DNA from: Escherichia coli
GTDB taxonomy: Bacteria > Pseudomonadota > Gammaproteobacteria > Enterobacterales > Enterobacteriaceae
DNA length: 64,000 nucleotides
Strand: one strand, 5' to 3'
NCBI RefSeq assembly: GCF_009931435.1
Contig: NZ_CP043414.1
Made by a program: the position numbers and the translations under genes. This document shows, piece after piece, positions 1 to 32,402 of the stretch (position 1 is its first letter; every line of letters begins with the position of its first letter). A model generated the notes under the pieces. The model was not told the DNA's origin. It saw only the letters and a program-made list of their open reading frames with translations, and did not search any database.

Positions 1-185
<185 letters not shown>

Positions 186-201
186 TTACAGGCGTTAGAT
201 T

Positions 202-225
202 TACATACATTTGTGAATGTATGTA
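202..225. promoter_or_regulatory. AcrR operator, 24-bp palindrome in the acrR/acrAB divergent promoter region
   Basis: tacatacatttgtgaatgtatgta is a perfect inverted repeat between the acrR and acrA starts; matches the known AcrR binding site. Confidence 0.8.
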
Positions 226-314
226 CCATAGCACGACGATAATATAAACGCAGCAATGGGTTTATTAACTTTTGACCATTGACCAATTTGAAATCGGACA
301 CTCGAGGTTTACAT

Positions 315-1508
315 ATGAACAAAAACAGAGGGTTTACGCCTCTGGCGGTCGTTCTGATGCTCTCAGGCAGCTTAGCCCTAACAGGATGTGACGACAAACA
401 GGCCCAACAAGGTGGCCAGCAGATGCCCGCCGTTGGCGTAGTTACAGTCAAAACTGAACCTCTGCAGATCACAACCGAGCTTCCGGGTCGCACCAGTGCC
501 TACCGGATCGCAGAAGTTCGTCCTCAAGTTAGCGGGATTATCCTGAAGCGTAATTTCAAAGAAGGTAGCGACATCGAAGCAGGTGTCTCTCTCTATCAGA
601 TTGATCCTGCGACCTATCAGGCGACATACGACAGTGCGAAAGGCGATTTAGCGAAAGCCCAGGCTGCAGCCAATATCGCGCAATTGACGGTGAATCGTTA
701 TCAGAAACTGCTGGGTACGCAGTACATCAGTAAGCAAGAGTACGATCAGGCTCTGGCTGATGCGCAACAGGCGAATGCCGCGGTAACTGCGGCGAAAGCT
801 GCCGTTGAAACTGCGCGTATCAATCTGGCTTACACCAAAGTCACCTCTCCAATTAGCGGCCGCATTGGTAAGTCAAACGTGACGGAAGGTGCCCTGGTGC
901 AAAACGGTCAGGCGACTGCGCTGGCAACCGTGCAGCAACTTGATCCGATCTACGTTGATGTGACTCAGTCCAGCAACGACTTCCTGCGCCTGAAACAGGA
1001 ACTGGCAAATGGCACGCTGAAACAAGAGAACGGCAAAGCCAAAGTGTCGCTGATCACCAGTGACGGCATTAAGTTCCCACAGGACGGTACGCTGGAGTTC
1101 TCTGACGTTACTGTCGATCAGACCACCGGGTCTATCACCCTACGCGCTATCTTCCCGAACCCGGATCACACTCTGCTGCCGGGTATGTTCGTGCGCGCAC
1201 GTCTGGAAGAAGGGCTTAATCCAAACGCCATTTTAGTCCCGCAACAAGGTGTAACCCGTACGCCGCGTGGCGATGCTACCGTACTGGTGGTAGGCGCGGA
1301 TGACAAAGTGGAAACCCGTCCGATCGTTGCAAGCCAGGCTATTGGCGATAAGTGGCTGGTGACAGAAGGTCTGAAAGCAGGCGATCGCGTAGTAATAAGT
1401 GGGCTGCAGAAAGTGCGTCCTGGTGTCCAGGTAAAAGCACAAGAAGTTACCGCTGATAATAACCAGCAAGCCGCAAGCGGTACTCAGCCTGAACAGTCCA
1501 AGTCTTAA
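315..1508 (+). CDS. acrA: Multidrug efflux RND periplasmic adaptor lipoprotein AcrA (397 aa)
   Basis: ORF 279..1508 trimmed to ATG 315 (MNKNRGFTPLAVVLMLSGSLALTGC lipoprotein signal); immediately upstream of acrB. Confidence 0.97.
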   Translation: MNKNRGFTPLAVVLMLSGSLALTGCDDKQAQQGGQQMPAVGVVTVKTEPLQITTELPGRTSAYRIAEVRPQVSGIILKRNFKEGSDIEAGVSLYQIDPATYQATYDSAKGDLAKAQAAANIAQLTVNRYQKLLGTQYISKQEYDQALADAQQANAAVTAAKAAVETARINLAYTKVTSPISGRIGKSNVTEGALVQNGQATALATVQQLDPIYVDVTQSSNDFLRLKQELANGTLKQENGKAKVSLITSDGIKFPQDGTLEFSDVTVDQTTGSITLRAIFPNPDHTLLPGMFVRARLEEGLNPNAILVPQQGVTRTPRGDATVLVVGADDKVETRPIVASQAIGDKWLVTEGLKAGDRVVISGLQKVRPGVQVKAQEVTADNNQQAASGTQPEQSKS

Positions 1509-1527
1509 CTTAAACAGGAGCCGTTAA

Positions 1528-4680
<3,153 letters not shown>

Positions 4681-4698
4681 TACAACGTGTAATCACTA

Positions 4699-4722
4699 AG
4701 GCCGCGCAAGCGGCCTTTTTTA
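4699..4722 (+). terminator. Rho-independent terminator after acrB
   Basis: GC hairpin ggccgc-gcaa-gcggcc followed by tttttt directly after the acrB stop. Confidence 0.7.
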
Positions 4723-5226
4723 GATGCATAACCTACGAGTTGAATGGGGAACTGAACAATCAACTCAGAATCTCATATGAAAACCAGTATTAACTTCGCA
4801 TAAAATTCATAAAAAATACTGATTGTTAGTTAATTTATATTAAGCAGGGCTAATAGATTTAATAATCCATAATCATTTAGAGGCTTTTCTTAATTATTTG
4901 CGGTAATTCTTTATTCATTCCTCGGTTATTACGACATATTCAGAGCATTCCTGGTATTAGTGTGACCAATTTCATCAGGCGATAATCTTGAAATGTTATG
5001 AACAGTTCGAGCAAACTGCTTTTACCTGCAGCGGGTTGGTGCTAGTATGAAAAAATGAGTCCTATCCCGCTTCCTTCCTATTTGTAATTTTTCGTAATAA
5101 TGCGATGAAAACCTGCAAAGAGTGGCTTATAGTTAAGCTAACAAACGAGAGGGCAAGTCCAGGTCAGTAAGTTTTTTCCATCCCGAAAGGTGTCCGTTAG
5201 TTCAACCGCTAAGAAGGGGACGCGTT

Positions 5227-5601
5227 ATGGATGAATACTCACCCAAAAGACATGATATCGCACAGCTTAAGTTTCTCTGTGAAACCCTGTATCATGATTG
5301 CCTTGCAAACCTTGAAGAAAGCAACCATGGCTGGGTTAACGACCCAACCTCGGCGATCAACCTCCAGTTGAATGAACTGATTGAGCATATTGCGACCTTC
5401 GCACTTAATTACAAAATTAAGTATAATGAAGACAATAAGCTCATTGAGCAGATCGACGAATATCTGGATGACACCTTTATGTTGTTCAGTAGTTATGGTA
5501 TTAATATGCAGGATCTTCAAAAATGGCGGAAGTCAGGTAATCGACTATTCCGTTGTTTTGTCAATGCGACGAAAGAGAATCCTGCGAGTTTATCTTGTTA
5601 G
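5227..5601 (+). CDS. tomB: Hha toxicity modulator TomB (YbaJ), 124 aa
   Basis: [29 protein letters not shown]..., directly upstream of hha. Confidence 0.95.
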
Positions 5602-5626
5602 AATTATTACAACCATGGGTAGAAGT

Positions 5627-5845
5627 ATGTCCGAAAAACCTTTAACGAAAACCGATTATTTAATGCGTTTGCGTCGTTGCCAGACAATTGACACGCTGGA
5701 GCGTGTTATCGAGAAAAATAAATACGAATTATCAGATAATGAACTGGCGGTATTTTACTCAGCCGCAGATCACCGCCTCGCCGAATTGACTATGAATAAA
5801 CTGTACGACAAGATCCCTTCCTCAGTATGGAAATTTATTCGCTAA
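5627..5845 (+). CDS. hha: Hemolysin expression-modulating protein Hha (72 aa)
   Basis: Internal ATG at 5627 of ORF 5381..5845 gives [72 protein letters not shown]. Confidence 0.95.
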
Positions 5846-6016
5846 TAAATAATTGGCTTTCGGAGCTATAACCAGCTGTTTATTAAGAATTTTATACTTT
5901 ATCGCCATGAAGGCGCACCCTATGTGATCTTCATCACACAGACGTAATGGGAACGTTCTCTTCACTGACTTTTCGTCTTACTGTGTTGCCGCATTTTCAG
6001 CAACCGGAGGTCAGTA

Positions 6017-6568
6017 ATGAGCACAGAAAAAGAAAAGATGATTGCTGGTGAGTTGTATCGCTCGGCAGATGAGACGTTATCTCGCGATCGCCTGCGCGCT
6101 CGTCAGCTTATTCACCGATACAATCATTCCCTGGCGGAAGAGGAAACATTACGCCAGCAAATTCTCGCTGAATTATTCGGTCAGGTGACAGAGGCTTATA
6201 TTGAGCCAACGTTTCGCTGTGACTATGGCTATAACATTTTTCTCGGCAATAATTTTTTCGCCAACTTCGATTGCGTGATGCTTGATGTCTGCCCTATTCG
6301 CATCGGTGATAACTGTATGTTAGCGCCAGGTGTTCATATCTACACGGCAACACATCCCATCGACCCTGTAGCACGTAATAGCGGTGTTGAACTGGGGAAA
6401 CCCGTCACCATCGGTAATAACGTCTGGATTGGCGGACGCGCAGTCATTAACCCTGGTGTGACCATTGGTGATAACGTCGTGGTAGCCTCAGGTGCAGTTG
6501 TCACAAAAGATGTCCCGGACAATGTTGTCGTGGGCGGTAATCCAGCCAGAATCATTAAAAAATTGTAA
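6017..6568 (+). CDS. maa: Maltose O-acetyltransferase (hexapeptide-repeat acyltransferase), 183 aa
   Basis: [24 protein letters not shown]... with left-handed beta-helix hexapeptide repeats ([27 protein letters not shown]). Confidence 0.95.
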
Positions 6569-6683
6569 CCTGTTTTTCGCAACTGTTATGCAAAATCGTG
6601 GCAAATCTGTTACTTTCCCTCTACTATTCCCACGTTAAAATAGGGTGTTCCCTGGAAAGTTGCAGATACCACGAAGGCAAACG

Positions 6684-7154
6684 ATGACCGAAATACAACG
6701 CCTGCTGACCGAAACGATTGAGTCTCTGAATACCCGCGAAAAACGCGACAACAAACCCCGCTTTAGTATCAGTTTTATCCGTAAACATCCGGGGCTGTTT
6801 ATCGGTATGTACGTTGCTTTTTTTGCCACCCTGGCGGTGATGTTGCAGTCCGAAACGCTGTCAGGCTCTGTCTGGCTACTGGTTGTATTATTTATCCTGC
6901 TTAATGGTTTCTTCTTTTTCGATGTCTACCCACGCTACCGCTATGAAGATATCGACGTGCTTGATTTCCGCGTTTGCTATAACGGCGAATGGTACAACAC
7001 GCGCTTTGTACCTGCCGCGCTGGTTGAAGCCATCTTGAACTCTCCGCGTGTCGCGGATGTTCATAAAGAACAACTGCAAAAAATGATCGTCCGTAAAGGT
7101 GAACTGTCTTTTTACGATATTTTTACCCTCGCTCGCGCCGAATCAACATCTTAA
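6684..7154 (+). CDS. ylaC: Inner membrane protein YlaC (DUF1449)
   Basis: ORF trimmed to ATG 6684 ([27 protein letters not shown]...); two hydrophobic segments; K-12 synteny. Confidence 0.85.
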
Positions 7155-7317
7155 GTTAGGATTACATACCAGGCGTAAAGCTCTACGCCTGGTCAAATGA
7201 CAACGATCGTTTCCACCCATCGCTTCATGAAATACCAGCTCTACCTCCTTATCTCCTGCCAGCCTTTTTCCACAATCAGATATACTTTCCCTACACTGTG
7301 TTAATAAGGATATGCTG

Positions 7318-8868
7318 GTGAGAACACGACATCTGGTCAGCCTGATTTCGGGAGTACTGATTCTTTCAGTATTACTGCCTGTCGGCTTAAGCATCTGGCT
7401 GGCCCATCAGCAAGTACAAACATCGTTTATTGAAGAGCTGAATACTTATTCCTCCCGCGTCGCTATTCGGGCCAATAAGGTGGCGATACAAGGGAAAGAT
7501 GCTCTGCAGGAGCTGGAAAGGTGGCAAGGTGCGGCCTGTAGCGCAGCCCATCTCATGAAAATGCGTCGGGTATCTTACAGTTATCGCTATATTCAGGAAG
7601 TGGTCTATATCGATAACAACGTTCCCCAGTGTTCGTCTCTGGAGCATGAAAGCCCACCCGATGCCTTCCCCGAGCCAGGTAAAATTTCGAAAGATGGTTA
7701 TCGGGTCTGGTTAACATCGCATAACGATTTAGGCATTATCCGTTACATGGTCGCTATAGGAACGGCACATTATGTCGTCATGATCGACCCCGCTTCCTTT
7801 ATTGATGTCATTCCCTATAGCTCATGGCAAATTGATGCCGCCATTATTGGCAATGCCCATAATGTTGTCATAACCAGCAGCGATGAAATTGCTCAGGGAA
7901 TTATTACCAGGCTACAAAAAACACCCGGTGAGCATATCGAAAATAATGGAATTATTTACGATATCCAGCCCTTCCCGGAGATGAATATTTCGATCATCAC
8001 CTGGGCTTCAACGAAAATGTTGCAGAAAGGCTGGCATCGGCAAGTCTTTATTTGGTTACCGCTCGGGTTGGTGATTGGCCTGCTGGCAGCGATGTTTGTG
8101 CTGCGTATTTTGCGCCGTATCCAGTCACCGCATCATCGGCTGCAGGATGCTATCGAAAATCGTGATATTTGCGTGCACTATCAGCCGATTGTCTCCTTAG
8201 CCAATGGAAAAATTGTCGGTGCTGAGGCACTGGCGCGCTGGCCGCAGACAGACGGTAGTTGGTTGTCACCAGATAGTTTTATTCCGCTGGCACAGCAAAC
8301 GGGGCTTTCTGAGCCGTTGACGCTACTGATTATAAAAAGTGTCTTTGAAGATATGGGCGACTGGCTGCGTCAGCATCCGCAGCAGCATATTTCGATCAAT
8401 CTTGAATCCACCGTGCTCACCTCGGAAAAAATCCCGCAATTGCTGCGTGAAATGATCAATCACTATCAGGTTAATCCCAGACAGATCGCGCTTGAACTCA
8501 CTGAACGCGAGTTTGCCGATCCGAAAACCAGCGCCCCGATAATTTCTCGCTACCGGGAGGCGGGCCATGAAATTTATCTCGATGATTTTGGTACGGGGTA
8601 TTCAAGTTTAAGCTATTTACAGGATCTGGATGTCGACATTCTGAAGATCGATAAATCTTTCGTTGATGCGCTGGAATATAAAAATGTCACGCCACATATC
8701 ATCGAAATGGCAAAAACACTGAAACTGAAAATGGTAGCGGAGGGAATCGAAACCAGTAAACAAGAAGAGTGGCTACGCCAGCATGGCGTGCACTACGGCC
8801 AGGGCTGGCTCTATAGCAAGGCATTACCGAAAGAGGATTTCTTACGCTGGGCCGAGCAACATTTGTGA
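7318..8868 (+). CDS. pdeB: c-di-GMP phosphodiesterase PdeB (YlaB), CSS-motif sensor plus EAL domain
   Basis: ORF 7312..8868; EAL-domain signatures (EALARW, DDFGTGYSSLSYL, KIDKSFV); start could be ATG 7312 or in-frame GTG 7318. Confidence 0.88.
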   Translation: MRTRHLVSLISGVLILSVLLPVGLSIWLAHQQVQTSFIEELNTYSSRVAIRANKVAIQGKDALQELERWQGAACSAAHLMKMRRVSYSYRYIQEVVYIDNNVPQCSSLEHESPPDAFPEPGKISKDGYRVWLTSHNDLGIIRYMVAIGTAHYVVMIDPASFIDVIPYSSWQIDAAIIGNAHNVVITSSDEIAQGIITRLQKTPGEHIENNGIIYDIQPFPEMNISIITWASTKMLQKGWHRQVFIWLPLGLVIGLLAAMFVLRILRRIQSPHHRLQDAIENRDICVHYQPIVSLANGKIVGAEALARWPQTDGSWLSPDSFIPLAQQTGLSEPLTLLIIKSVFEDMGDWLRQHPQQHISINLESTVLTSEKIPQLLREMINHYQVNPRQIALELTEREFADPKTSAPIISRYREAGHEIYLDDFGTGYSSLSYLQDLDVDILKIDKSFVDALEYKNVTPHIIEMAKTLKLKMVAEGIETSKQEEWLRQHGVHYGQGWLYSKALPKEDFLRWAEQHL

Positions 8869-8909
8869 ATTTTTGGGCTGACGGCACGCCGCACAGCCCG
8901 TCACGCTAC

Positions 8910-9263
8910 CTATTCGTCGATGATTGACTCGAATCCGCCATAGATCATTCGCTTGCCATCAAACGGCATGGACTCGCCGAACTCCTTCATCCGTGGGTCC
9001 GACATCATCTTTTGATTAGCAGCGTCGCGGACCTCTTTTGAAGGGTATTCAATCCAGCTAAAGACAACCTCTTCATTCTCTTCCGCTTTCACCGCCATAC
9101 GAAAATCGGTCACTTTGCCATCCGGTACATCGCTGGCCCAGCATTCGACAATACGAAGCGCGCCAAACTCTTTAAACAATGGCGCGGCCTTAGCGGCCAT
9201 TTCCCGATAGGCATCCTTTTTATCGGCAGGAACGGCAACCACAAAACCATCAACATACTTCAT
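8910..9263 (-). CDS. ybaA: DUF1428-family protein YbaA (117 aa)
   Basis: ORF MKYVDGFVVAVPADKKDAYREMAAKAAPLFKEFGALRIVECWASD... Confidence 0.9.
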   Translation of the reverse strand: MKYVDGFVVAVPADKKDAYREMAAKAAPLFKEFGALRIVECWASDVPDGKVTDFRMAVKAEENEEVVFSWIEYPSKEVRDAANQKMMSDPRMKEFGESMPFDGKRMIYGGFESIIDE

Positions 9264-9373
9264 CAGACATACCTCCGAAGCGTACTGCGCAGCCAGACAA
9301 TTCTTGCGACGTCAGTTGTGGTTAAAGTTTAGCCATGTTGGGATTTTTTGACGAAACGGGGGGAGGCAGAAAT

Positions 9374-9487
9374 GGGTGGGGGCCCTGCCAGCTACATCCC
9401 GGCACACACGTCATCTGCCTTGGCTGCTTCCTTCCGGACCTGACCTGGTAAACAGAGTAGCGTTGCGGGAGAACCAACAGAGCCCCC
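9374..9487 (-). ncRNA. ffs: 4.5S RNA (signal recognition particle RNA), 114 nt
   Basis: Minus strand reads GGGGGCTCTGTTGGTTCTCCCGCAACGCTACTCTGTTTACCAGGTCAGGTCCGGAAGGAAGCAGCCAAGGCAGATGACGTGTGTGCCGGGATGTAGCTGGCAGGGCCCCCACCC, the recalled E. coli 4.5S RNA sequence; expected between ybaA and atl. Confidence 0.92.
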
Positions 9488-9563
9488 ATTGAGAGCGTTG
9501 AGAACCAACGCGCAGGCGCATTATCACTGCTGCCCCGGCTAATTGCAACCCATTGCGTGCCAG

Positions 9564-9953
9564 ATGCTGGTTTCTTGCGCAATGCGGCTTCACTCGGGCG
9601 TTTTTCCAGATTATGCTGAAAAATTACCTCAGGAAGAAAAGATGGAAAAAGAAGATTCATTTCCCCAACGCGTCTGGCAAATCGTAGCCGCTATTCCCGA
9701 AGGCTATGTCACCACTTACGGTGATGTGGCGAAACTGGCGGGCTCGCCCCGCGCCGCGCGCCAGGTGGGTGGTGTGTTAAAGCGTCTCCCGGAAGGCAGC
9801 ACCTTGCCCTGGCATCGGGTGGTTAATCGCCACGGCACCATTTCGCTAACCGGACCGGATTTACAGCGTCAGCGACAGGCATTACTGGCAGAAGGTGTGA
9901 TGGTGTCAGGAAGAGGGCAAATCGACTTGCAGCGTTATCGCTGGAACTACTAA
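9564..9953 (+). CDS. atl: Alkyltransferase-like DNA-binding protein Atl (YbaZ), 129 aa
   Basis: ORF 9543..9953 trimmed to internal ATG (MLVSCAMRLHSGVFPDYAEKL...); MGMT-like DNA-binding domain motif (VTTYGDVAKLAGSPRAARQVG ... PWHRVVN). Confidence 0.85.
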   Translation: MLVSCAMRLHSGVFPDYAEKLPQEEKMEKEDSFPQRVWQIVAAIPEGYVTTYGDVAKLAGSPRAARQVGGVLKRLPEGSTLPWHRVVNRHGTISLTGPDLQRQRQALLAEGVMVSGRGQIDLQRYRWNY

Positions 9954-9976
9954 CCCTCTCCGGGCGGAGAGGGTTA
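9952..9976. terminator. Hairpin between convergent atl and ybaY (probable bidirectional terminator)
   Basis: Inverted repeat aaccctctccg / cggagagggtt around a short loop directly after the atl stop. Confidence 0.5.
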
Positions 9977-9983
9977 ACTTCGC

Positions 9984-10556
9984 TTAATATTGCGTAGGAG
10001 CTGGAACTGCCGAAGACGGATTCACCTGGGTTGGTGAAGTTGATGGTACGGTAGTCGTTGCGCCCCCGCTGGCCTGAACCGGCACGGCGGTTTGCTGCAC
10101 CGGCACCAATGTCAGGTCAGCTTTAGTTCCGCCCTGGTTGATCACCGGCTGAACGGTATCGGTAATAAATACCAGTTTGTCATTCACGGTAATCGCCGCA
10201 CTCAACAGAATACGCGCGTTCGGCTGAACATCTGCCGGGTTAAATGGCAGAACAAAGCTGAATGGTGACTGTTTGCCTTCGGTACGCACCGCTTTCTGCG
10301 CCAGTACTTTTGACGGTGCATCGGCTAACGACGCGTCAGAAAGTGTCACGGTCAGCACGGCATCAGGCGGCAGTGCGACTTTCTGACGGATCCAGACGGT
10401 ACCGGAAACATTCGGTTGCTGGATAGCAGGTTGCTGTGTTGCTGAAATAGAGGTATTTGCAGCCGGTGCTGGCGTCTGAATATCCGCGCTTTTATCTGCG
10501 CAAGCCGCCAACGCAATCGCAACCGCTAAACCACTGACCATGTGCACGAGTTTCAT
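9984..10556 (-). CDS. ybaY: Outer membrane lipoprotein YbaY (190 aa)
   Basis: ORF MKLVHMVSGLAVAIALAACADKSADIQ... with lipobox LAAC. Confidence 0.9.
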   Translation of the reverse strand: MKLVHMVSGLAVAIALAACADKSADIQTPAPAANTSISATQQPAIQQPNVSGTVWIRQKVALPPDAVLTVTLSDASLADAPSKVLAQKAVRTEGKQSPFSFVLPFNPADVQPNARILLSAAITVNDKLVFITDTVQPVINQGGTKADLTLVPVQQTAVPVQASGGATTTVPSTSPTQVNPSSAVPAPTQY

Positions 10557-10773
10557 TCACTTCTCCTTATTATCAATGCACCAGCGGGCTAACTTTCCTC
10601 GCCGGAAGAGTGGTTAACAAAATAGTAACGTCAACAAGTGTGGCACACATCACGCATTTCTGCCTGTAATTGGCTAGTAATTCAGACTATTGCACCCATC
10701 GGACCAGTGGCAAATTTGCGTTATACTCAACTCACTTTGGCTTGCTGCGGCAGCTTTGTTACTGGAGAGTTAT

Positions 10774-11634
10774 ATGAGTCAGGCGCTAAAAAATTTACTG
10801 ACATTGTTAAATCTGGAAAAAATTGAGGAAGGACTCTTTCGCGGCCAGAGTGAAGATTTAGGTTTACGCCAGGTGTTTGGCGGCCAGGTCGTGGGTCAGG
10901 CCTTGTATGCTGCAAAAGAGACCGTCCCTGAAGAGCGGCTGGTACATTCGTTTCACAGCTACTTTCTTCGCCCAGGCGACAGTAAGAAGCCGATTATTTA
11001 TGATGTCGAAACGCTGCGTGACGGTAACAGCTTCAGCGCCCGCCGGGTTGCTGCTATTCAAAACGGTAAACCGATTTTCTATATGACAGCCTCTTTCCAG
11101 GCTCCGGAAGCGGGTTTCGAACATCAAAAAACAATGCCGTCCGCGCCAGCGCCTGATGGCCTGCCTTCGGAAACGCAAATCGCCCAATCGCTGGCGCACC
11201 TGCTGCCGCCAGTGCTGAAAGATAAATTCATCTGCGATCGTCCGCTGGAAGTCCGTCCGGTGGAGTTTCATAACCCACTGAAAGGACATGTCGCAGAACC
11301 ACATCGTCAGGTGTGGATCCGCGCAAATGGTAGCGTACCGGATGATCTGCGCGTTCATCAGTATCTGCTCGGTTACGCTTCTGACCTTAATTTCCTGCCG
11401 GTAGCTTTACAGCCGCACGGCATCGGTTTTCTCGAACCAGGGATTCAGATAGCAACCATCGACCATTCCATGTGGTTCCATCGCCCGTTTAATTTGAATG
11501 AATGGCTGCTGTATAGCGTGGAGAGCACCTCGGCGTCCAGCGCACGCGGCTTTGTGCGCGGTGAGTTTTATACCCAGGACGGCGTGCTGGTTGCCTCGAC
11601 CGTTCAGGAAGGGGTAATGCGTAATCACAATTAA
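10774..11634 (+). CDS. tesB: Acyl-CoA thioesterase II (286 aa)
   Basis: ORF 10690..11634 trimmed to ATG 10774 ([44 protein letters not shown]...). Confidence 0.95.
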
Positions 11635-11672
11635 AAAAACAGCCGGAGGTGAAAACCGTCCGGCTGTTTTTT
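11634..11672. terminator. Bidirectional rho-independent terminator between tesB and amtB
   Basis: aaaaaaa-cagccgga-(11 nt loop)-tccggctg-tttttt, flanked by A-run and T-run. Confidence 0.7.
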
Positions 11673-11682
11673 GCAGTGCTTA

Positions 11683-12969
11683 TTACGCGTTATAGGCATT
11701 TTCACCGTGGCTGTTGACGTCCAGCCCTTCTCGTTCCTGCTCTTCCGGTACACGCAGACCAACCGTCAGATCCGCCAGTTTGTAGCCGATAAAAGCCACC
11801 ACACCAGACCAGACAATCGTAATGGCAATACTTTCCAGCTGTACCAGCAGCTGATGCCCCATCGTCACACCTTCGGCAAAACCCACTCCGCCCAGCGAAC
11901 TGGCGGCAAAAATCCCAGTCATGATACAGCCGACAATGCCACAAACGCCGTGCACACCGAAGACATCGCAGGGATCATCCACCCGCAGCAAGCGTTTGAG
12001 CATGGTAACGCCCCACAAGCCCGCCAGACCAGCGACTACGCCGATAATCAACGCGCCGCCAACACCAATGTAGCCACAGGCTGGCGTCACGCCGACCAGA
12101 CCGGCAATCGCGCCAGAACACGCCCCCAGCAGTGAAGGCTTACCGCGCAGCGCCCATTCACCGAAGATCCAGCCAAGAATTGCCGCCGCCGTTGCGACCA
12201 CAGTATTCACAAATGCCAGTGCTGCGATTTCATTCGCCATGCCCGCTGACCCGGCATTAAAGCCAAACCAACCGATATAGAGAATGGCAGTCCCGGTGAA
12301 GACCATCGGCAGGTTGTGCGGTTTAAACGCCTCTTTGCCGAAGCCCACGCGTTTGCCAATTAGATATGCGCCCACCAGACCTGCAATAGCGGCGTTAATG
12401 TGCACCACCGTGCCACCCGCAAAATCCAGCGCACCGTGAGAAGCCAGCAAACCGCCGCCCCAGACCATATGCGCAATCGGAATGTAAGAAAGCGTCAGCC
12501 ACACCACCACGAAAATCAGCACAGCTGAGAAGCGGATCCGTTCCGCCAGTGCCCCGACGATCAAGCCGACGGTAATGCAGGCAAACGATCCCTGAAACGC
12601 CACGTGGATATACTGATAAATGCTGCCCATCACCGCCGTCAGTTCGATGTTTTTCAGCATCAACCAGTTAATGTTACCGAAGAAGTTGTTGCCCTCACCA
12701 AACGCCAGCGAGTAGCCGTAAACCACCCAGAGAATGCAGACCAGAGCAAACGTCACCGTCACCTGCGTCAGCATCGACAGCACGTTTTTGCCGCGAATTA
12801 ACCCACCGTAAAACAGGGCAATCCCCGGAATAGTCATAAACAGCACCAGCGCAGTACAAATCATCATAAACGCATTGTCGGCTTTATCGGCCACCGCAGG
12901 TGCAGCCATTACCAGTCCCGGCAGCATCGCCAGTGAAGCAAGCCCAGTTTTTATCGTCGCTATCTTCAT
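11683..12969 (-). CDS. amtB: Ammonium channel AmtB (428 aa)
   Basis: ORF MKIATIKTGLASLAMLPGLVMAAPAVADKADNAFMMICTALVLFMTIPGIALFYGG...; downstream of glnK. Confidence 0.97.
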   Translation of the reverse strand: MKIATIKTGLASLAMLPGLVMAAPAVADKADNAFMMICTALVLFMTIPGIALFYGGLIRGKNVLSMLTQVTVTFALVCILWVVYGYSLAFGEGNNFFGNINWLMLKNIELTAVMGSIYQYIHVAFQGSFACITVGLIVGALAERIRFSAVLIFVVVWLTLSYIPIAHMVWGGGLLASHGALDFAGGTVVHINAAIAGLVGAYLIGKRVGFGKEAFKPHNLPMVFTGTAILYIGWFGFNAGSAGMANEIAALAFVNTVVATAAAILGWIFGEWALRGKPSLLGACSGAIAGLVGVTPACGYIGVGGALIIGVVAGLAGLWGVTMLKRLLRVDDPCDVFGVHGVCGIVGCIMTGIFAASSLGGVGFAEGVTMGHQLLVQLESIAITIVWSGVVAFIGYKLADLTVGLRVPEEQEREGLDVNSHGENAYNA

Positions 12970-12998
12970 TTTTCGTTCCTGTTGCTGTGTGCCAGAGA

Positions 12999-13337
12999 TT
13001 ACAGCGCCGCTTCGTCGGCTTCGCCGGTACGAATACGAATGACGCGTTGCAATTCAGCGACGAAGATTTTGCCGTCGCCAATTTTTCCGGTGTAAGCCGC
13101 CTTGCTGACGATATCGATCACTTCATCGAGTTGGTCATCAGCAATCGCCACATCAATTTTTACTTTTGGCAGAAAGTTGACGCTGTATTCCGCCCCCCGG
13201 TACAGCTCGGCATGCCCTTTCTGACGCCCGAAACCTTTCACTTCGGTGACGGTCAGGCCCTGAATACCAATGGAAGATAACGCTTCACGAACGTCTTCCA
13301 GCTTGAATGGTTTGATTATCACGGTCACCAGCTTCAT
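12999..13337 (-). CDS. glnK: Nitrogen regulatory protein PII-2, GlnK (112 aa)
   Basis: Internal ATG of ORF 12999..13475 gives MKLVTVIIKPFKLEDVREALSSIGIQGLTVTEVKGFGRQKGHAELYRGAEY... Confidence 0.97.
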   Translation of the reverse strand: MKLVTVIIKPFKLEDVREALSSIGIQGLTVTEVKGFGRQKGHAELYRGAEYSVNFLPKVKIDVAIADDQLDEVIDIVSKAAYTGKIGDGKIFVAELQRVIRIRTGEADEAAL

Positions 13338-13388
13338 AGATCCCCTCCGGTCAGAATTCGGTAATGGTTCTGCTACACAAATAAGGTA

Positions 13389-13406
13389 TTGCAAGCGGTG
13401 TGCCAG
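13389..13406 (-). promoter_or_regulatory. sigma54 (-24/-12) promoter of glnK-amtB
   Basis: Minus strand reads cTGGCACaccgcTTGCAa (TGGCAC-N5-TTGCA) about 50 nt upstream of the glnK ATG; NtrC-like GCAC-N7-GTGC palindromes further upstream at 13459..13503. Confidence 0.7.
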
Positions 13407-13517
13407 AAATGAAAAACGAGAAAGAGAGCAGGAAGTTAAGAAGATTGAAAACAAAAACGCACTATGACAGTGCACAGTGCGTTACATTTTTGCACCAACG
13501 ATGAAATATTGCGCTAT

Positions 13518-17064
<3,547 letters not shown>

Positions 17065-17093
17065 GCGTAGTGTCCTGACCTGATTCTGGATAT

Positions 17094-17552
17094 TTATTCG
17101 ATGGGTAAAGAAGTGGTGTATTTAATCTGTTCCATCGCGAAGCTGGAAGTGACGTCCGACAGCCCCGGCACGCTGTTTACCAGACGCTTATAAAACTCGT
17201 CGTAGCGTTTCATATCGGCAACCTGGACGCGCATCAGATAATCGTATTCCCCGGCCATGCGCCAGAACCCCAGCACTTCTGGCATTTCAGTAACCACCGT
17301 CACAAAGCGGCAATACCATTCGCTGCTGTGATGTTGCGTTTTTATCAGCACAAAGGCGGTCAGACCGAGGCCAATTTTTTCCGGGTCCAACAGGGCGACT
17401 TTGCCGATAAGGATACCGTCATCCTCCAACCGTTTCAGTCGCTTCCAGCAAGGCGTGGTTGTCAGATTAACGGCTTCAGCCAATGCCTGCAAAGAGAGGG
17501 TGCAATCCTGCTGTAGTAAGGCCAGCAGCTTACGGTCAATTTTATCTAACAT
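17094..17552 (-). CDS. decR: Lrp/AsnC-family transcriptional regulator DecR (YbaO), 152 aa
   Basis: ORF 17094..17660 trimmed to ATG at 17552 ([48 protein letters not shown]...). Confidence 0.9.
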
Positions 17553-17663
17553 AACCCTTCCACAGAGAAATTTTTTCTCTTTTAATTCTATTTTAAAGGT
17601 GAAATCGCGACAATTTATTCTGTGCGGTTTAAACACCACGGCACAAAATGACAAATTCAACGC

Positions 17664-17687
17664 AAAAAAAACCGGGCAATTGCCCGG
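17664..17687 (-). terminator. Rho-independent terminator after cof
   Basis: Palindrome ccgggcaattgcccgg with a T-run on the minus strand (aaaaaaaa on plus), just downstream of the cof stop. Confidence 0.6.
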
Positions 17688-17704
17688 TGCTGGAAGGGAT
17701 CTCG

Positions 17705-18523
17705 TTATTCGGGGGAATAAGGTAGATGTGGATAGTCCAGCCAGTGTGTCAAATAGTGAGAGACAGCCTGATTTCGGCAGTGTCCAATCACCGGTAAATG
17801 AGGGAGCTCCGCGCGCAGTTGCGGCATCGCATTGCCCATAATAAAGCCGCTACCGACGCTGCCTAACATTTCGCGATCGTTCATCGCATCACCAAAGGCC
17901 ATGCAATCGCGCAACGATAAACCTAAATGTTGGGTCAGCACCGTCAATGCAGCGCCTTTATTGCAGCCCACCGGGAGCACTTCGAGGCAATCAGTCGCGG
18001 AAAAACACAAATGTGCACGCTCGCCTAATGCTTCGTGTAGTTGGATCTGCAAGCGTGTAAGATCGTCGTGATCGCCACAGAAGCAGATCTTGGTGACGCG
18101 ATCGAGTGGCATTTTTTTAACATCGATTATCTGATAACGAAAACCGCTATAGACAAATGCCTGCAACAACGCAGGGATCTCTTTTCCGGTAAACCAACCA
18201 TCGTCATTGAAAATATGCATGCTAGCTCGGGTATCCCATTGCTGATACAGCACCAGCTCTGCCACATCCGCAGGTAAATCATCACGATGTAAAAGTTCAC
18301 CTTCCAGAGAATGCACGCGCGTTCCGTTGCCGGTAATCAAATACGCATCCAGCGATAGCGCCCCGAGAATATGCTGCATCTCCAGCGCATGACGACCTGT
18401 GGCGAAAGTGAGGGTAATGTCGCGTTCACGCAGTCGTGCCAAAGTAGAGAGTGTTTTCTCACCTAAATGATGGTCAGGCATCAATAAAGTGCCGTCCATA
18501 TCAAATGCTGCCAGACGAGCCAT
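17705..18523 (-). CDS. cof: HAD-superfamily HMP-PP phosphatase Cof (272 aa)
   Basis: ORF 17705..18535; start taken at [14 protein letters not shown] (HAD motif I DxDGT); the ATG 12 nt upstream is an alternative. Confidence 0.9.
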
Positions 18524-18622
18524 TTCTTTCTCCACTCTGTGACACGGTTAATAGCGATTGAGTATCACCTGATATATACGGAAGTAATAGTGAATAGTTA
18601 AATAATATTGTTCCGGGTTTAT

Positions 18623-20323
18623 ATGCGACTGCTCAACCGTCTTAACCAGTATCAACGTCTGTGGCAACCTTCCGCCGGAAAGCCGCAAACCGTCACCGTC
18701 AGCGAACTGGCCGAACGCTGTTTTTGCAGCGAACGCCATGTTCGTACGCTGTTACGCCAGGCACAGGAGGCGGGATGGCTGGAGTGGCAGGCGCAGTCAG
18801 GACGCGGAAAGCGCGGTCAACTACGCTTTCTGGTCACGCCAGAATCGCTACGCAATGCGATGATGGAACAGGCGCTGGAAACCGGAAAGCAGCAAGATGT
18901 GCTGGAGCTGGCGCAACTGGCCCCAGGTGAGCTGCGGACCCTGTTACAGCCGTTTATGGGCGGACAATGGCAAAACGATACGCCCACGTTGCGTATTCCC
19001 TACTATCGCCCGCTCGAACCGCTACAACCGGGCTTTTTGCCCGGCCGTGCCGAGCAGCATCTCGCCGGACAGATATTTTCCGGCCTGACCCGCTTCGATA
19101 ATAATACCCAGCGCCCGATTGGTGATTTAGCGCATCACTGGGAAACCTCTGCTGACGGGTTACGCTGGGACTTTTATCTTCGTTCAACCCTACACTGGCA
19201 TAACGGCGATGCAGTAAAAGCCTCACACTTACACCAGCGGTTATTGATGCTGTTACAACTGCCAGCACTGGGTCAATTATTTATTAGCGTGAAGCGTATT
19301 GAAGTCACCCATCCGCAGTGTCTGACCTTCTTTTTACATCGCCCCGATCACTGGCTTGCGCACCGGCTGGCGAGCTACTGCAGCCATCTGGCGCATCCGC
19401 AATTCCCCCTGATCGGCACTGGTCCTTTTCGCTTAACACAATTCACAGCGGAACTGGTGCGCCTGGAGAGCCATGATTATTACCATTTGCGTCATCCGCT
19501 GCTTAAAGCGGTTGAGTACTGGATAACTCCGCCGCTTTTCGAAAAAGATTTGGGAACCAGTTGTCGGCATCCCGTGCAAATCACCATCGGCAAACCGGAG
19601 GAGCTGCAACGCGTCAGCCAGGTCAGTAGCGGCATCAGTTTAGGTTTTTGCTATTTAACGTTGTGCAAAAGTCCCCGACTGTCCCTCTGGCAGGCGCGAA
19701 AAGTGATCTCCATTATTCATCAATCCGGTTTATTACAAACGTTAGAAGTCGGAGAAAACCTGATCACCGCCAGTCATGCATTACTGCCTGGCTGGACTAT
19801 TCCACAATGGCAAGTACCGGATGAAGTCAAACTACCGAAAACCTTGACGCTGGTTTATCACCTACCGATAGAACTTCATACCATGGCAGAACGCCTACAG
19901 GCGACACTGGCAGCGGAAGGCTGTGAACTCACGATTATTTTTCATAACGCAAAAAACTGGGACGACACGACCCTACTAGCACACGCAGACCTCATGATGG
20001 GCGACAGGTTAATTGGCGAAGCACCGGAATATACCCTGGAGCAATGGCTGCGTTGCGATCCACTGTGGCCACATGTTTTCGACGCTCCAGCATATGCACA
20101 TTTGCAATCGACACTGGACGCGGTGCAAGTAATGCCTGATGAGGAAAACCGATTTAATGCCCTGAAAGCGGTTTTTAGCCAGTTAATGGCAGATGCGACG
20201 CTGACGCCGCTGTTCAACTATCACTATCGCATTAGCGCCCCTCCCGGCGTGAACGGTGTGCGGCTGACACCGCGAGGCTGGTTTGAATTTACCGAAGCCT
20301 GGCTTCCCGCGCCGTCGCAATGA
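18623..20323 (+). CDS. ybaE: Uncharacterised SgrR-like / solute-binding-domain protein YbaE (about 566 aa)
   Basis: ORF 18608..20323 (MRLLNRLNQYQRLWQPSAGKPQTVTVSELAERCFCSERHVRTLLRQAQEAGWLEWQ...); start ATG 18608 or 18623. Confidence 0.85.
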   Translation: MRLLNRLNQYQRLWQPSAGKPQTVTVSELAERCFCSERHVRTLLRQAQEAGWLEWQAQSGRGKRGQLRFLVTPESLRNAMMEQALETGKQQDVLELAQLAPGELRTLLQPFMGGQWQNDTPTLRIPYYRPLEPLQPGFLPGRAEQHLAGQIFSGLTRFDNNTQRPIGDLAHHWETSADGLRWDFYLRSTLHWHNGDAVKASHLHQRLLMLLQLPALGQLFISVKRIEVTHPQCLTFFLHRPDHWLAHRLASYCSHLAHPQFPLIGTGPFRLTQFTAELVRLESHDYYHLRHPLLKAVEYWITPPLFEKDLGTSCRHPVQITIGKPEELQRVSQVSSGISLGFCYLTLCKSPRLSLWQARKVISIIHQSGLLQTLEVGENLITASHALLPGWTIPQWQVPDEVKLPKTLTLVYHLPIELHTMAERLQATLAAEGCELTIIFHNAKNWDDTTLLAHADLMMGDRLIGEAPEYTLEQWLRCDPLWPHVFDAPAYAHLQSTLDAVQVMPDEENRFNALKAVFSQLMADATLTPLFNYHYRISAPPGVNGVRLTPRGWFEFTEAWLPAPSQ

Positions 20324-20387
20324 ATAGCTGGTCCGGGTTAATCGCAGGCGTTACCATAACGCTTTTATTGTTCAAGCAGGATTATCT

Positions 20388-21083
20388 ATGAAACGTGCTG
20401 TCGTTGTGTTCAGTGGAGGCCAGGATTCCACCACCTGTCTGGTGCAGGCATTACAACAATATGATGAAGTCCATTGCGTGACGTTCGATTACGGTCAGCG
20501 ACATCGCGCAGAAATCGACGTGGCACGCGAACTGGCGCTGAAACTGGGGGCACGCGCGCATAAGGTTCTTGATGTAACGCTGCTCAACGAACTGGCGGTC
20601 AGTAGCCTGACACGTGACAGCATTCCGGTGCCTGATTATGAACCTGAAGCTGATGGCATCCCGAATACGTTTGTCCCTGGGCGTAATATTTTGTTCCTGA
20701 CACTGGCGGCAATATATGCGTATCAGGTAAAAGCAGAAGCCGTAATTACCGGCGTCTGCGAAACGGATTTCTCCGGTTACCCGGATTGCCGCGATGAGTT
20801 TGTGAAAGCACTAAACCATGCCGTCAGTTTAGGCATGGCGAAAGATATTCGTTTTGAAACGCCGCTGATGTGGATTGATAAAGCGGAAACCTGGGCGCTG
20901 GCTGATTATTACGGCAAACTAGATTTAGTCCGTAACGAAACGTTGACCTGCTATAACGGCATTAAAGGCGACGGTTGCGGTCATTGTGCGGCGTGTAATT
21001 TACGCTCCAACGGTTTGCATCATTATCTGGCCGATAAACCGACGGTGATGGCAGCGATGAAGCAGAAAACCGGGTTGAAGTAA
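20388..21083 (+). CDS. queC: 7-cyano-7-deazaguanine synthase QueC (231 aa)
   Basis: [42 protein letters not shown] (PP-loop SGGxDS) with C-terminal Cys cluster. Confidence 0.97.
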
Positions 21084-21097
21084 TTATTCCGGGTGTC

Positions 21098-21122
21098 GCC
21101 GGATGCGGCTTGAGCATCCGGC
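21098..21122. repeat. REP-like palindromic element between queC and fadM
   Basis: gccggatgcggcttgagcatccggc imperfect palindrome of the REP type. Confidence 0.5.
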
Positions 21123-21134
21123 ACCACAAAACGT

Positions 21135-21533
21135 TTACTTAACCATCTGCTCCAGCTTTTCGCGCAATTCCCCTTCCAGAGCTAATGCTTTCTGCGTTTT
21201 AAGATCAATACAAACAAACGTAATAAGCGCATCCGCGACCACCTGCCCTTCCGGCTCCAGTGTAATGACCTGGCTTAAGATGCCGCTTTTACCGTTTAAT
21301 TGCTGCAACTGACTGGTAATGGTTAACAGGTCGCTTAATACCGCCGGGCGACGATAGTTAATATTGATATTGACCACGACGAAGGCGATGTTATGGGCCG
21401 TCATCCACTGAAAACTGTCGCTATTTTCCAACCCATCCCAGCGGGCTTCTTCGAGAAACTCAAGGTAGCGGGCGTTGTTTACGTGCTGGTAAACGTCGAG
21501 ATGATATCCACGAACTTTGATTTGTGTTTGCAT
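21135..21533 (-). CDS. fadM: Long-chain acyl-CoA thioesterase FadM (132 aa)
   Basis: ORF MQTQIKVRGYHLDVYQHVNNARYLEFLEEARWDGLE... (hotdog fold). Confidence 0.95.
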   Translation of the reverse strand: MQTQIKVRGYHLDVYQHVNNARYLEFLEEARWDGLENSDSFQWMTAHNIAFVVVNININYRRPAVLSDLLTITSQLQQLNGKSGILSQVITLEPEGQVVADALITFVCIDLKTQKALALEGELREKLEQMVK

Positions 21534-21586
21534 AGCGCAATAACCTTACGTTGTTGTTATAAGAACTGTTATAAGTACAGAGGTCA

Positions 21587-21618
<32 letters not shown>

Positions 21619-21619
21619 T

Positions 21620-22052
<433 letters not shown>

Positions 22053-22066
22053 ACAGTGAAAACAGG

Positions 22067-24032
<1,966 letters not shown>

Positions 24033-24223
24033 GGTGTAACAACACTCCGCTGTAGATGACTGTGTACCTCACGCAACGTATCGATGCGCGCAAAGGCCTA
24101 TTGTGACAAGAAACGGGGGCAATTGTCAGCCCACAAGACGCAGAAAGTCACCGAATACAAATAAAAAAGGCACATCAGTAGATGCGCCCTTGAACTTCGT
24201 CACACCCCCACTGGGGACAACGC

Positions 24224-24496
24224 TTAGTTTACCGCGTCTTTCAGTGCTTTACCTGCACGGAAGCTCGGTACTTTAGCGGCAGCGATGGTGATCTCTTTAC
24301 CGGTCTGCGGGTTGCGGCCAGTACGGGCAGCACGCTCTTTAACGGCAAAAGTACCAAAACCTACCAGTGCTACATCATCCCCTTCTTTCAGAGATTCAGT
24401 TACGGAAGCAATAATAGCATCTAACGCACGGCCAGCCGCAGCTTTAGAGATATCAGCCCCTGCAGCAATCTTGTCGATCAATTGAGATTTATTCAC
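24224..24496 (-). CDS. hupB: DNA-binding protein HU-beta (90 aa)
   Basis: [93 protein letters not shown]. Confidence 0.97.
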
Positions 24497-24635
24497 TCTT
24501 CTCTTCCTCTTTATAATTTATATCGCACTTGAATCCTTCAAGGTACGAACGCGCAGCAGTTATATCAGGCCAGCCATCCCCTTACAACACCCCTTAATAA
24601 GGGCAAGCCCAATCCGCCATCTAACTTAGCGAGAC

Positions 24636-24680
24636 AAAAAAAGGCTGGCAAGTCCGAATTAGCCTGCCAGCCCTGTTTTT
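24636..24680 (-). terminator. Rho-independent terminator after lon (bidirectional hairpin)
   Basis: aaaaaaa-ggctggca-(14 nt)-tgccagcc-ctgttttt directly downstream of the lon stop. Confidence 0.7.
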
Positions 24681-24704
24681 ATTAGTGCATTTTGCGCGAG
24701 GTCA

Positions 24705-27059
24705 CTATTTTGCAGTCACAACCTGCATGCCAGACGGTTCATTTTGCAGCGCCAGAGTCAGAACTTCCTCAATGCGTTTCACAGGATGAATGTCCAGATC
24801 AGCAATTACGTTGTCAGGAATCTCTTCCAGATCGCGTTTATTTTCGAACGGAATTAACACTGTTTTAATCCCGCCGCGATGCGCTGCCAGTAGTTTTTCT
24901 TTCAAACCACCGATCGGCAGTACCTGACCACGCAGAGTGATCTCACCGGTCATTGCCACATCGGCACGAACCGGGTTACCGGTCAGGCAAGAAACCAGCG
25001 CGGTGCACATAGCAATACCGGCACTCGGACCATCTTTTGGCGTCGCACCTTCAGGTACGTGGACGTGGATGTCGCGTTTTTCGTAAAAATCAGGGTTGAT
25101 CCCCAGTTTTTCCGCACGCGCACGAACCACCGTTAACGCCGCCTGAATGGACTCCTGCATCACTTCGCCGAGCGAACCGGTATAGGTCAGTTTGCCTTTA
25201 CCCGGAACGCACGCGGTTTCAATGGTAAGTAAGTCACCGCCCACTTCCGTCCACGCCAGACCGGTTACCTGACCGACACGGTTTTCGTTATCCGCGCGTC
25301 CATAGTCGAAACGCTGAACACCGAGGTAGTCATGCAGGTTATCGCCGTTAATTTCGATATGTTTTAATGACTTATCGAGCAGTAACTGCTTAACCGCTTT
25401 GCGGCACAGTTTGGAGATTTCACGTTCCAGACCACGTACGCCCGCCTCACGGGTGTAGTAACGAATAATGCCGATAATGGCGCTATCGTCGACGGTCAGC
25501 TCACCTTTTTTCAGTGCATTACGTTCAATCTGCTTTGGCAGCAGGTGACGTTTGGCGATGTTCAGTTTTTCATCTTCGGTATAACCGGAGAGGCGAATCA
25601 CTTCCATACGGTCCAGCAGTGGTGCCGGAATGTTCATGGAGTTTGACGTCGCGACAAACATCACGTCGCTGAGATCGTAATCCACTTCCAGGTAGTGGTC
25701 GCTGAACGCTACGTTCTGCTCTGGATCCAGCACTTCAAGCAGTGCGGAAGCCGGATCGCCACGCATGTCAGAAGACATTTTGTCGATCTCATCGAGCAGG
25801 AACAGCGGGTTTTTCACGCCCACTTTCGCCATTTTCTGGATCAGTTTACCCGGCATAGAACCGATGTAAGTACGGCGGTGACCACGGATTTCCGCTTCGT
25901 CACGCACGCCGCCCAGCGCCATACGAACATATTTACGTCCGGTAGCTTTGGCGATGGACTGACCAAGAGAAGTTTTACCTACCCCCGGCGGCCCAACCAG
26001 GCAGAGGATCGGCCCCTTGATTTTGTTGACACGGCTTTGAACCGCAAGATACTCAAGGATACGATCTTTAACGCGCTCCAGACCATAATGGTCGGTATCA
26101 AGGATTTCTTGCGCCTGACGCAGGTCTTTTTTGACCTTGCTACGCGCATTCCACGGCACCTGCACCATCCAGTCGATATAACCACGCACCACGGTCGCTT
26201 CTGCCGACATCGGAGACATCATTTTCAGCTTCTGCAACTCTGCTTCCGCTTTCTCTTTTGCCTCTTTCGGCATTTTCGCCGCGTCGATTTTGCGCTTCAG
26301 GGCTTCGTTTTCGTCCGGTGCATCGTCCATTTCGCCGAGTTCTTTCTGAATAGCTTTCATTTGCTCGTTCAGATAGTACTCACGCTGGGATTTTTCCATC
26401 TGCTTTTTAACGCGGTTGCGAATGCGTTTCTCAACCTGCAGCAGATCGATTTCCGATTCCATCATCGCCATCAGATATTCCAGACGTTCGTTGACGTCGG
26501 ACATCTCCAGAACAGACTGTTTGTCAGCGAGTTTCAGCGGCATATGCGCAGCAATGGTATCCGCCAGACGCGCCGGATCGTCGATGCTGTTCAGCGACGT
26601 CAGCACTTCTGGTGGGATTTTTTTGTTCAGCTTGATATAACCTTCAAACTGGCTGATTGCGGTGCGCACCAGCACTTCCTGTTCCCGCTCATCAATGGTC
26701 GGCGACTCCAGATACTCCGCCTTCGCAGAAAAGTGTTCGCCATTGTCAGAGAGCGCAGAAATACGCGCGCGCTGTAACCCCTCGACCAGCACTTTGACGG
26801 TGCCGTCAGGCAGTTTCAGCATCTGCAATATAGAGGCCACGGTCCCGACGGTGAAAAGATCGTTTACACCCGGCTCATCCGTTGAAGCTTCTTTCTGCGC
26901 GACCAGCATAATTTTTTTATCATGGTCCATCGCCGCTTCCAGACAACGGATAGATTTTTCCCGCCCGACAAATAAGGGGATGACCATGTGCGGATAAACC
27001 ACCACATCGCGCAGCGGCAATACGGGGATTTCAATGCGTTCAGAACGCTCAGGATTCAT
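24705..27059 (-). CDS. lon: ATP-dependent Lon protease (784 aa)
   Basis: ORF 24705..27104 trimmed to ATG at 27059 ([44 protein letters not shown]...); Walker [10 protein letters not shown]. Confidence 0.97.
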
Positions 27060-27142
27060 AGAGCTCTCTCTTAGTTTAATTTCCGCCAGGTAATCAGATG
27101 ACACGACTGTGCTTCACGCCATCTATTAACATGTACGTCAGT

Positions 27143-27170
27143 ATATGGGGATGTTTCCCCCACATTCAAC
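27143..27170 (-). promoter_or_regulatory. sigma32 heat-shock promoter of lon
   Basis: Minus strand reads TTGAAT-gtgggggaaacat-CCCCATAT, matching the sigma32 -35/-10 consensus (cTTGAAa / CCCCATnT), about 85 nt upstream of the lon ATG. Confidence 0.7.
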
Positions 27171-27189
27171 GCCGAGAATAGAGGAAAAA

Positions 27190-27222
27190 TTAAAGGGGAG
27201 ATAAAATCCCCCCTTTTTGGTT
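27190..27222 (-). terminator. Rho-independent terminator after clpX
   Basis: Minus strand gggggga-ttttatc-tcccc followed by tttaattttt, just downstream of the clpX stop. Confidence 0.6.
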
Positions 27223-27246
27223 AACTAATTGTGTGGAAATGGTTAA

Positions 27247-28521
27247 TTATTCACCAGATGCCTGCTGAGCTTCCGGCTTGCCATAAATCAGCAACGGTTT
27301 GCTTTGGCCATCAATTACCGACTCGTCGATAACCACTTTTTCGACATCTTCCATGGACGGCAGATCATACATGGTATCGAGCAGTGCGGCTTCTACGATG
27401 GAACGCAGGCCACGGGCACCGGTTTTACGCGCCATCGCTTTCTTAGCGATAGCATCCAGCGCCTCGTCACGGAATTCCAGATCCACGCCTTCCAGATTAA
27501 ACAGCGCCTGATACTGCTTGGTCAGGGCGTTTTTCGGCTCTTTGAGGATCTGAATCAGAGCTTCTTCGCTCAGTTCATTCAACGTTGCGACAACCGGCAG
27601 ACGACCAATGAACTCAGGGATCAGACCAAACTTGATCAGATCTTCCGGTTCAACCTGCGCCAGCAGCTCGCCTTCACTTGCTTTGTCAGATTTCGCTTTT
27701 ACCGTCGCGCCAAAACCAATGCCGGAGCCTGTTTCTACACGATGGGAAATCACTTTATCCAGACCGGCAAACGCACCGCCACAGATAAACAGGATCTTAG
27801 AGGTATCAACCTGCAAGAATTCCTGCTGCGGATGTTTACGCCCACCTTGCGGTGGAACAGCAGCTACCGTACCTTCGATCAGTTTCAACAGTGCCTGCTG
27901 TACGCCTTCACCGGAAACGTCTCGGGTAATGGACGGGTTGTCTGACTTACGAGAAATCTTGTCGATTTCATCGATGTAGACAATCCCGCGCTGCGCTTTC
28001 TGTACGTCGTAATCGCACTTTTGCAACAGCTTCTGAATGATGTTTTCAACGTCTTCGCCCACATAACCGGCTTCGGTCAGCGTGGTTGCATCGGCCATGG
28101 TGAACGGGACGTCCAGCAGGCGCGCCAGCGTTTCGGCCAGCAGCGTTTTACCGGAACCGGTCGGACCGATCAGCAGAATGTTACTTTTGCCCAACTCGAC
28201 ACCATTGCTGGTATCGCCGTTGCGCAGACGTTTGTAGTGGTTGTATACCGCGACCGCCAGCACTTTTTTCGCCTGTTCCTGACCGATAACGTAATCGTCC
28301 AGGTGGTTGCGAATTTCATGCGGCGTCGGTAGCGCACTGCGTTCACGATGCGGTGCAACTTCTTTAATCTCTTCGCGAATGATGTCGTTACATAAATCAA
28401 CACATTCGTCGCAGATATACACGGATGGACCGGCAATCAGCTTGCGCACTTCATGCTGGCTTTTGCCGCAAAAAGAGCAATACAGCAATTTGCCTGAGCC
28501 ATCTTTGCGTTTATCTGTCAT
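27247..28521 (-). CDS. clpX: ATP-dependent Clp protease ATP-binding subunit ClpX (424 aa)
   Basis: [51 protein letters not shown] (zinc-binding domain) plus Walker A GPTGSGKT. Confidence 0.98.
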
Positions 28522-28647
28522 GGGTCAAAACCTCTTCTTTGTTCTTTGTGCCGCACACGACGACGCAAATGCCATTCTCAGGCGCAAGCCGCTTTATAGC
28601 GTTGTGCCGCCCTGGATAAGTATAGCGGCACAGTTGCGCCTCTGGCA

Positions 28648-29271: not shown

Positions 29272-29451
29272 TTCCGTCTCCTGGATAAAATTGAAAAAAC
29301 CTGCTGTACCGATTGTAACCTTATGGACGGATTATCAGCTAGTCCCTGTGTTATGGGTACGGCATCACCATATTTCAAGCATAACAATCTTTTGTTGTTA
29401 CGCTAACACCGAAAGAGGCTTTTCGCACGGTTCCATGCAAAATTCATGACA

Positions 29452-29488
29452 AAAAAAAGCCCACCACCTGGCGGTGACGGGCCTTTGT
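29452..29488 (-). terminator. Probable terminator after tig
   Basis: GC-rich imperfect hairpin (gcccaccacctggcggtgacgggc) followed by a T-run on the minus strand (aaaaaaaa on plus). Confidence 0.45.
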
Positions 29489-29516
29489 GCGAATTTAGCG
29501 CGTTATGCTGCGTAAA

Positions 29517-30824
<1,308 letters not shown>

Positions 30825-32359: not shown

Positions 32360-32402
32360 TTTCTGCCCTCTGGCCCGGTGCAAGCCGGGCCTGTAGACGC
32401 CC

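Follow-up and report, generated by a model that had tools for sequence, protein, structure and literature searches.

The minus strand of positions 9374..9487 of the window (the whole 64,000-nucleotide stretch of E. coli DNA analyzed here) is almost certainly ffs, the single chromosomal gene for the 114-nt 4.5S RNA of the signal recognition particle (SRP); it is an already known gene in a known allele, and offers nothing new. The complete mature RNA, read on the minus strand from 9487 to 9374, is GGGGGCUCUGUUGGUUCUCCCGCAACGCUACUCUGUUUACCAGGUCAGGUCCGGAAGGAAGCAGCCAAGGCAGAUGACGUGUGUGCCGGGAUGUAGCUGGCAGGGCCCCCACCC, which starts with GGGGGCUCUG and ends with GGGCCCCCACCC. When the whole window was scanned with Rfam 15 at gathering thresholds two matches were returned, one of which, to RF00169 (Bacteria_small_SRP), lies at 9479..9383 on the minus strand, spans model positions 1-97 of 97, and scores 65.8 bits (E = 2.6e-12) against a gathering score of 40 bits; it is the sole SRP RNA match within the 64-kb window. 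In megablast searches the 114 nt match exactly one place per genome in 5,424 of 5,426 complete E. coli genomes, and every match among those listed is annotated 'ffs: signal recognition particle sRNA small type'. The E value of the RF00169 match, together with 114/114 identity to annotated E. coli ffs, places the agreement far beyond chance.

These results bear out a sequence-only reading that had placed ffs on this strand and at this site and had named an RF00169 covariance-model scan and a BLASTN comparison with E. coli ffs as checks: the scan returns its match where the gene was claimed, the comparison finds identity to annotated ffs over the full length in 136 genomes, and the position between ybaA and atl agrees as well. 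The description of the RNA in that reading as "base for base" that of E. coli holds for those 136 genomes but not for K-12 MG1655, to which 113 of the 114 positions are identical. Coordinates of the features discussed below are collected in Table 1.

Table 1. Features at and around ffs (positions are those of the window).
Feature	Position	Strand	Basis
Mature 4.5S RNA (ffs), 114 nt	9374..9487	-	114/114 identity to annotated ffs; MFE hairpin
Rfam Bacteria_small_SRP span, 97 positions	9383..9479	-	RF00169; RefSeq/PGAP SRP_RNA features of equal extent
Candidate sigma-70 promoter: -35 TTGCAA 9548..9543, 17-nt spacer, -10 GATAAT 9525..9520	9520..9548	-	Consensus scan
5' leader of precursor, removed by RNase P according to the K-12 literature	9488..9513	-	Putative start for the source strain
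Apical 'domain IV' core CAGGUCCGGAAGGAAGCAGCC, RNA nt 46-66	9422..9442	-	Exact 21-mer conservation
Variable RNA position 80: U in the window, C in K-12	9408	-	Alignment to K-12
ybaA (DUF1428), downstream neighbour	8910..9263	-	Pfam PF07237, E 2.3e-48
atl/ybaZ (alkyltransferase-like, MGMT DNA-binding domain), divergent upstream neighbour	9564..9953	+	Pfam PF01035, E 3.9e-27
112-aa ORF over ffs, artefact	9322..9660	-	No Pfam, no RefSeq CDS, broken in relatives
60-aa ORF over ffs, artefact	9411..9593	-	No Pfam, no RefSeq CDS, broken in relatives

The gene order tesB, ybaY, atl, ffs, ybaA, pdeB is the same as in K-12 (five RefSeq E. coli annotations), and comparison with K-12 MG1655 ffs shows the same locus, length, neighbours, promoter hexamers, leader, whole Ffh-binding apical region and tetraloop; the two differ by U rather than C at position 80 of the mature RNA and by four flank substitutions in 9200..9700 (at 9686, 9587, 9554 and 9360). 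The mature RNAs of SE15, O25b:H4-ST131 and 134 other complete genomes, all with U80, are identical to that of the window, and the SE15 flanks differ from it at only 2 of 501 positions (9360 and 9240). At greater distance, the 4.5S RNAs of Citrobacter werkmanii, Providencia vermicola, Photorhabdus cinerea and Yersinia artesiana share the hairpin architecture, apical core, UCAAU/GG junction at the 5' processing site and promoter footprint, but carry lower-stem substitutions, many of them compensatory, and have a leader hairpin of different sequence. The start of the divergent neighbour atl/ybaZ, annotated in RefSeq as 'MGMT family protein' (312 nt), is ambiguous, the alternatives being a 129-aa form starting at 9564 and the 103-aa form of RefSeq/PGAP starting at 9642; the ybaA-atl gap of 300 bp described previously is thus correct for the 129-aa start (9264..9563) but not for the 103-aa start, which gives a gap of 378 bp.

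Only one promoter-like site was found by a consensus scan of 9200..9700, the minus-strand TTGCAA/GATAAT pair listed in Table 1. Alignment across six enterobacterial genera shows that TTGC[AT][AT], GATAAT(G) and the UCAAU/GG junction are fixed and that the bases between them vary. RNA-seq 5' ends of K-12 ffs lie mainly at -26, with minor ends near -127 and -153 (PMC5499578, where earlier leader lengths of 22-24 nt are also cited), and E. coli RNase P cuts the 4.5S precursor (PMC5499578; PMC7049720). Position -26 corresponds to 9513 in the window, seven bases past the -10 hexamer, and the position of the candidate promoter fits the -26 start reported in K-12 (PMC5499578). The 129-aa start of atl at 9564 leaves a distance of only 16 bp to the -35 hexamer of ffs, and the minor K-12 starts at -127 and -153 (PMC5499578) would map to 9614 and 9640, within 9564..9642 on the strand opposite to atl.

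The leader contains a hairpin of 6 bp (GCGUUG/CAACGC, 9511..9495, -8.0 kcal/mol, z -5.4), which is followed by CUCUCAAU and then by the cleavage site. In Providencia, Photorhabdus and Yersinia a leader hairpin of unrelated sequence occupies the same place; across the six enterobacterial genera it is the position of this hairpin and not its sequence that is kept, with the conserved UCAAU right before the RNase P site. The 10-nt sequence GTTGGTTCTC is present as a direct repeat, with one copy in the leader (9509..9500) and the other in the mature RNA (nt 10-19). At the other end of the gene the RNA reads …ACCC, then AUUUCU, and the consensus scan of 9200..9700 shows no canonical intrinsic terminator immediately after ffs; the sequence alone thus does not account for how the 3' end forms. 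A terminator-like match at 9496..9482 on the minus strand was rejected, as it straddles the leader/mature junction and is the one such match found where 0.6 are expected by chance.

The 4.5S RNA is calculated to fold as a single long hairpin that leaves four bases (ACCC) unpaired at the 3' end, with a minimum free energy (MFE) of -55.1 kcal/mol. Its apical core (nt 46-66) is identical to that of K-12 and contains the GGAA tetraloop at nt 53-56 (9435..9432); the tetraloop stretch quoted in the sequence-only reading, AGGUCCGGAAGGAAGCAGCC, is present as RNA nt 47-66, at 9441..9422. When searched in one genome per species, the apical 21-mer CAGGTCCGGAAGGAAGCAGCC matches exactly at no fewer than 120 loci, which span Alpha-, Beta- and Gammaproteobacteria, Actinomycetota, Bacillota and others. 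This core comprises the region bound by the Ffh M domain and the tetraloop contact of FtsY (PMC4737761, PMC5454536).

Covariation was evaluated in an alignment of the window with 13 gammaproteobacterial hairpins (n = 14), onto which the MFE structure of the window was projected. For the 42 pairs, 94.1% of cells are standard-paired, a value to be read with the facts that the projected structure came from one of the aligned sequences, the window itself, and that the apical helices are bound to be invariant, the sequences having been collected with a motif from that region. Both sides have changed in 15 of the 42 pairs. None of 500 shuffles matches the observed value in four of five measures, and 2 of 500 do so for further pair types; with the 3' partner displaced by 1-3 columns, pairing falls to 37-54%. 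The single extended hairpin is supported by these compensatory changes, as judged from the alignment. Two SRP-RNA apical motifs are found ~12 kb apart on one scaffold of Stutzerimonas urumqiensis, and two in Alkalilacustris brevis (at 3095 and 4696, 1.6 kb apart), the second of which has a divergent 5' arm; these paired motifs may reflect duplication or decay of SRP RNA genes.

The function proposed for the gene follows from its likeness to K-12, from which we infer that ffs is also expressed and processed in the source strain; the start site, RNase P processing, protein binding and targeting cycle given here are accordingly those of the literature or are extrapolated from it. Transcription would start ~26 nt upstream of the mature RNA from the sigma-70 promoter, and the short 5' leader would be removed by RNase P to yield the 114-nt 4.5S RNA, which would then fold into one long hairpin. 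The apical part, with its internal loops and GGAA tetraloop, would bind the Ffh M domain to form the SRP. In the published descriptions the affinity of 4.5S RNA for the Ffh M domain is very high, the SRP attaches to ribosomes on which a signal sequence is displayed, and FtsY contacts the tetraloop first (PMC4737761, PMC5454536). Here too the tetraloop would help to recruit the receptor FtsY, after which the Ffh-FtsY GTPase dimer would relocate to the hairpin's distal part; there GTP hydrolysis would be triggered and the nascent chain passed to SecYEG. Ffh binding, FtsY-dependent GTPase activation and protein targeting are all expected on the strength of 113/114 identity to the K-12 RNA that has been studied.

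Position 80 is the sole difference in the mature RNA from K-12, for which the RefSeq MG1655 ffs locus was used as reference. Alleles were counted with 55-mer queries centred on this position, so that a mismatch at the centre left no seed of 28 nt; of the 5,426 complete E. coli genomes 136 have U80, SE15 and O25b:H4-ST131 strains among them, and 5,288 have C80, which together account for all 5,424 matched genomes. The partner of position 80 is G27 (9461), so that a G-C pair in K-12 becomes a G-U wobble here. Over the 14 gammaproteobacterial hairpins pair 27:80 is A-U in five (Citrobacter, Yersinia, two Vibrio and Rheinheimera), G-U in five (the window, Providencia, Photorhabdus and two Pseudomonas), and G-C in four (E. 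albertii, one Pseudomonas, Stutzerimonas and one MAG). Because all three pairings occur across these RNAs, G27-U80 is normal variation, and it appears from the alignment to be an ordinary intermediate of a covarying pair (G-C to G-U to A-U); C80U is thus a tidy example of this path at its intermediate step, and leaves knowledge of the SRP unchanged.

The wobble belongs to a 4-bp helix (25-28/79-82) that directly adjoins the bulged bases, which we take to be G83 and C86/C87, in the distal hairpin region, the docking place of the Ffh-FtsY GTPase dimer. It could be imagined that G27-U80 slightly alters the flexibility of the distal site, and hence the timing of GTP hydrolysis, so that U80, instead of being neutral, would be a natural tuning allele; this we consider very unlikely, and if true such tuning would concern the carriers of U80, 2.5% of E. 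coli genomes. Another reading, that C80U has disabled the gene and that the window holds a decayed or non-functional copy, is less probable still, to the point of being negligible. It can draw on the one-base departure from the K-12 reference in a helix beside the distal part of the hairpin, but the copy lies at the canonical locus and is the only SRP RNA match in the window, E. coli carry exactly one copy, and cells are described as needing 4.5S RNA in order to survive (PMC5499578). Moreover, the allele is common to 136 complete genomes, the same G-U pair occurs naturally in Providencia, Photorhabdus and two Pseudomonas with A-U in its place elsewhere, and the MFE shape is unaltered by C80U, at -55.1 kcal/mol for U80 versus -57.0 kcal/mol for C80.

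Equally little credence is given to the idea that a same-strand ORF of 112 or 60 aa is a real coding gene, one lying over the RNA gene or standing in its place. Both ORFs exist on the minus strand where they had been noted, and both are open, with start codons, in the window, K-12 and SE15. However, no Pfam family was found in either, and no CDS lies over ffs in the five RefSeq E. coli annotations examined. The frames are, moreover, truncated or closed in relatives that retain the RNA hairpin: the 112-aa frame is shortened to 59 aa in E. albertii and in Providencia, Photorhabdus, Yersinia and Vibrio has a stop no later than nt 31 of ffs, and the 60-aa frame is without a start codon in Citrobacter werkmanii and closed in Yersinia and Vibrio. 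Variation at the locus obeys base-pairing rules and not codon rules. The earlier view of both ORFs as artefacts is thereby upheld, and both arise from a GC-rich, stop-poor RNA gene. In the six-frame ORF track two meaningless ORFs mask an essential non-coding RNA gene, and the ybaA-atl intergenic region would appear empty or wrongly coding if the RNA were not called; ORF interpretation should be preceded by an RNA covariance-model pass, a point that matters for annotation quality only.

The window, taken over 1..62000, is collinear with the core chromosome of E. coli, its genes leading from acrAB by way of pdeB, ffs, tesB, lon and clpX to secD and dxs. The closest complete E. coli genomes are 98.5-99.5% identical over larger stretches of it; among all 5,426, the top identity is at most 99.5% over 8 kb, and at most 99.2% and 98.8% over two 25-kb pieces. 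The window thus belongs to a lineage with no close representative among these genomes. Two genomes among the best-matching, 24A16CRGN010 and 2020CK-00188, carry C80, and the ffs flanks are closest to those of SE15, which has U80; since these two best-matching genomes have C80 and the window U80, allele and genomic background are not simply co-inherited. Taken together, these comparisons suggest a mosaic or poorly sampled lineage.

A mobile element beside ffs was considered and rejected. Several of the closest genomes, e.g. E. coli Z0117EC0005, have an IS200/IS605 tnpA between tesB and amtB, and this gene is absent from the tesB-amtB spacer of the window near 11700. ARAGORN found no tRNA or tmRNA gene in the window (1..64000). 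The second Rfam match is the sraA sRNA (RF02029) at 27131..27226 on the plus strand, full length and with 106.7 bits against a threshold of 56, which by synteny sits in the lon-clpX region. Finally, 37001..62000 holds sequence that is repeated within each E. coli genome at a median of 36 places (megablast); these are presumably intergenic repeats of the REP/BIME type.
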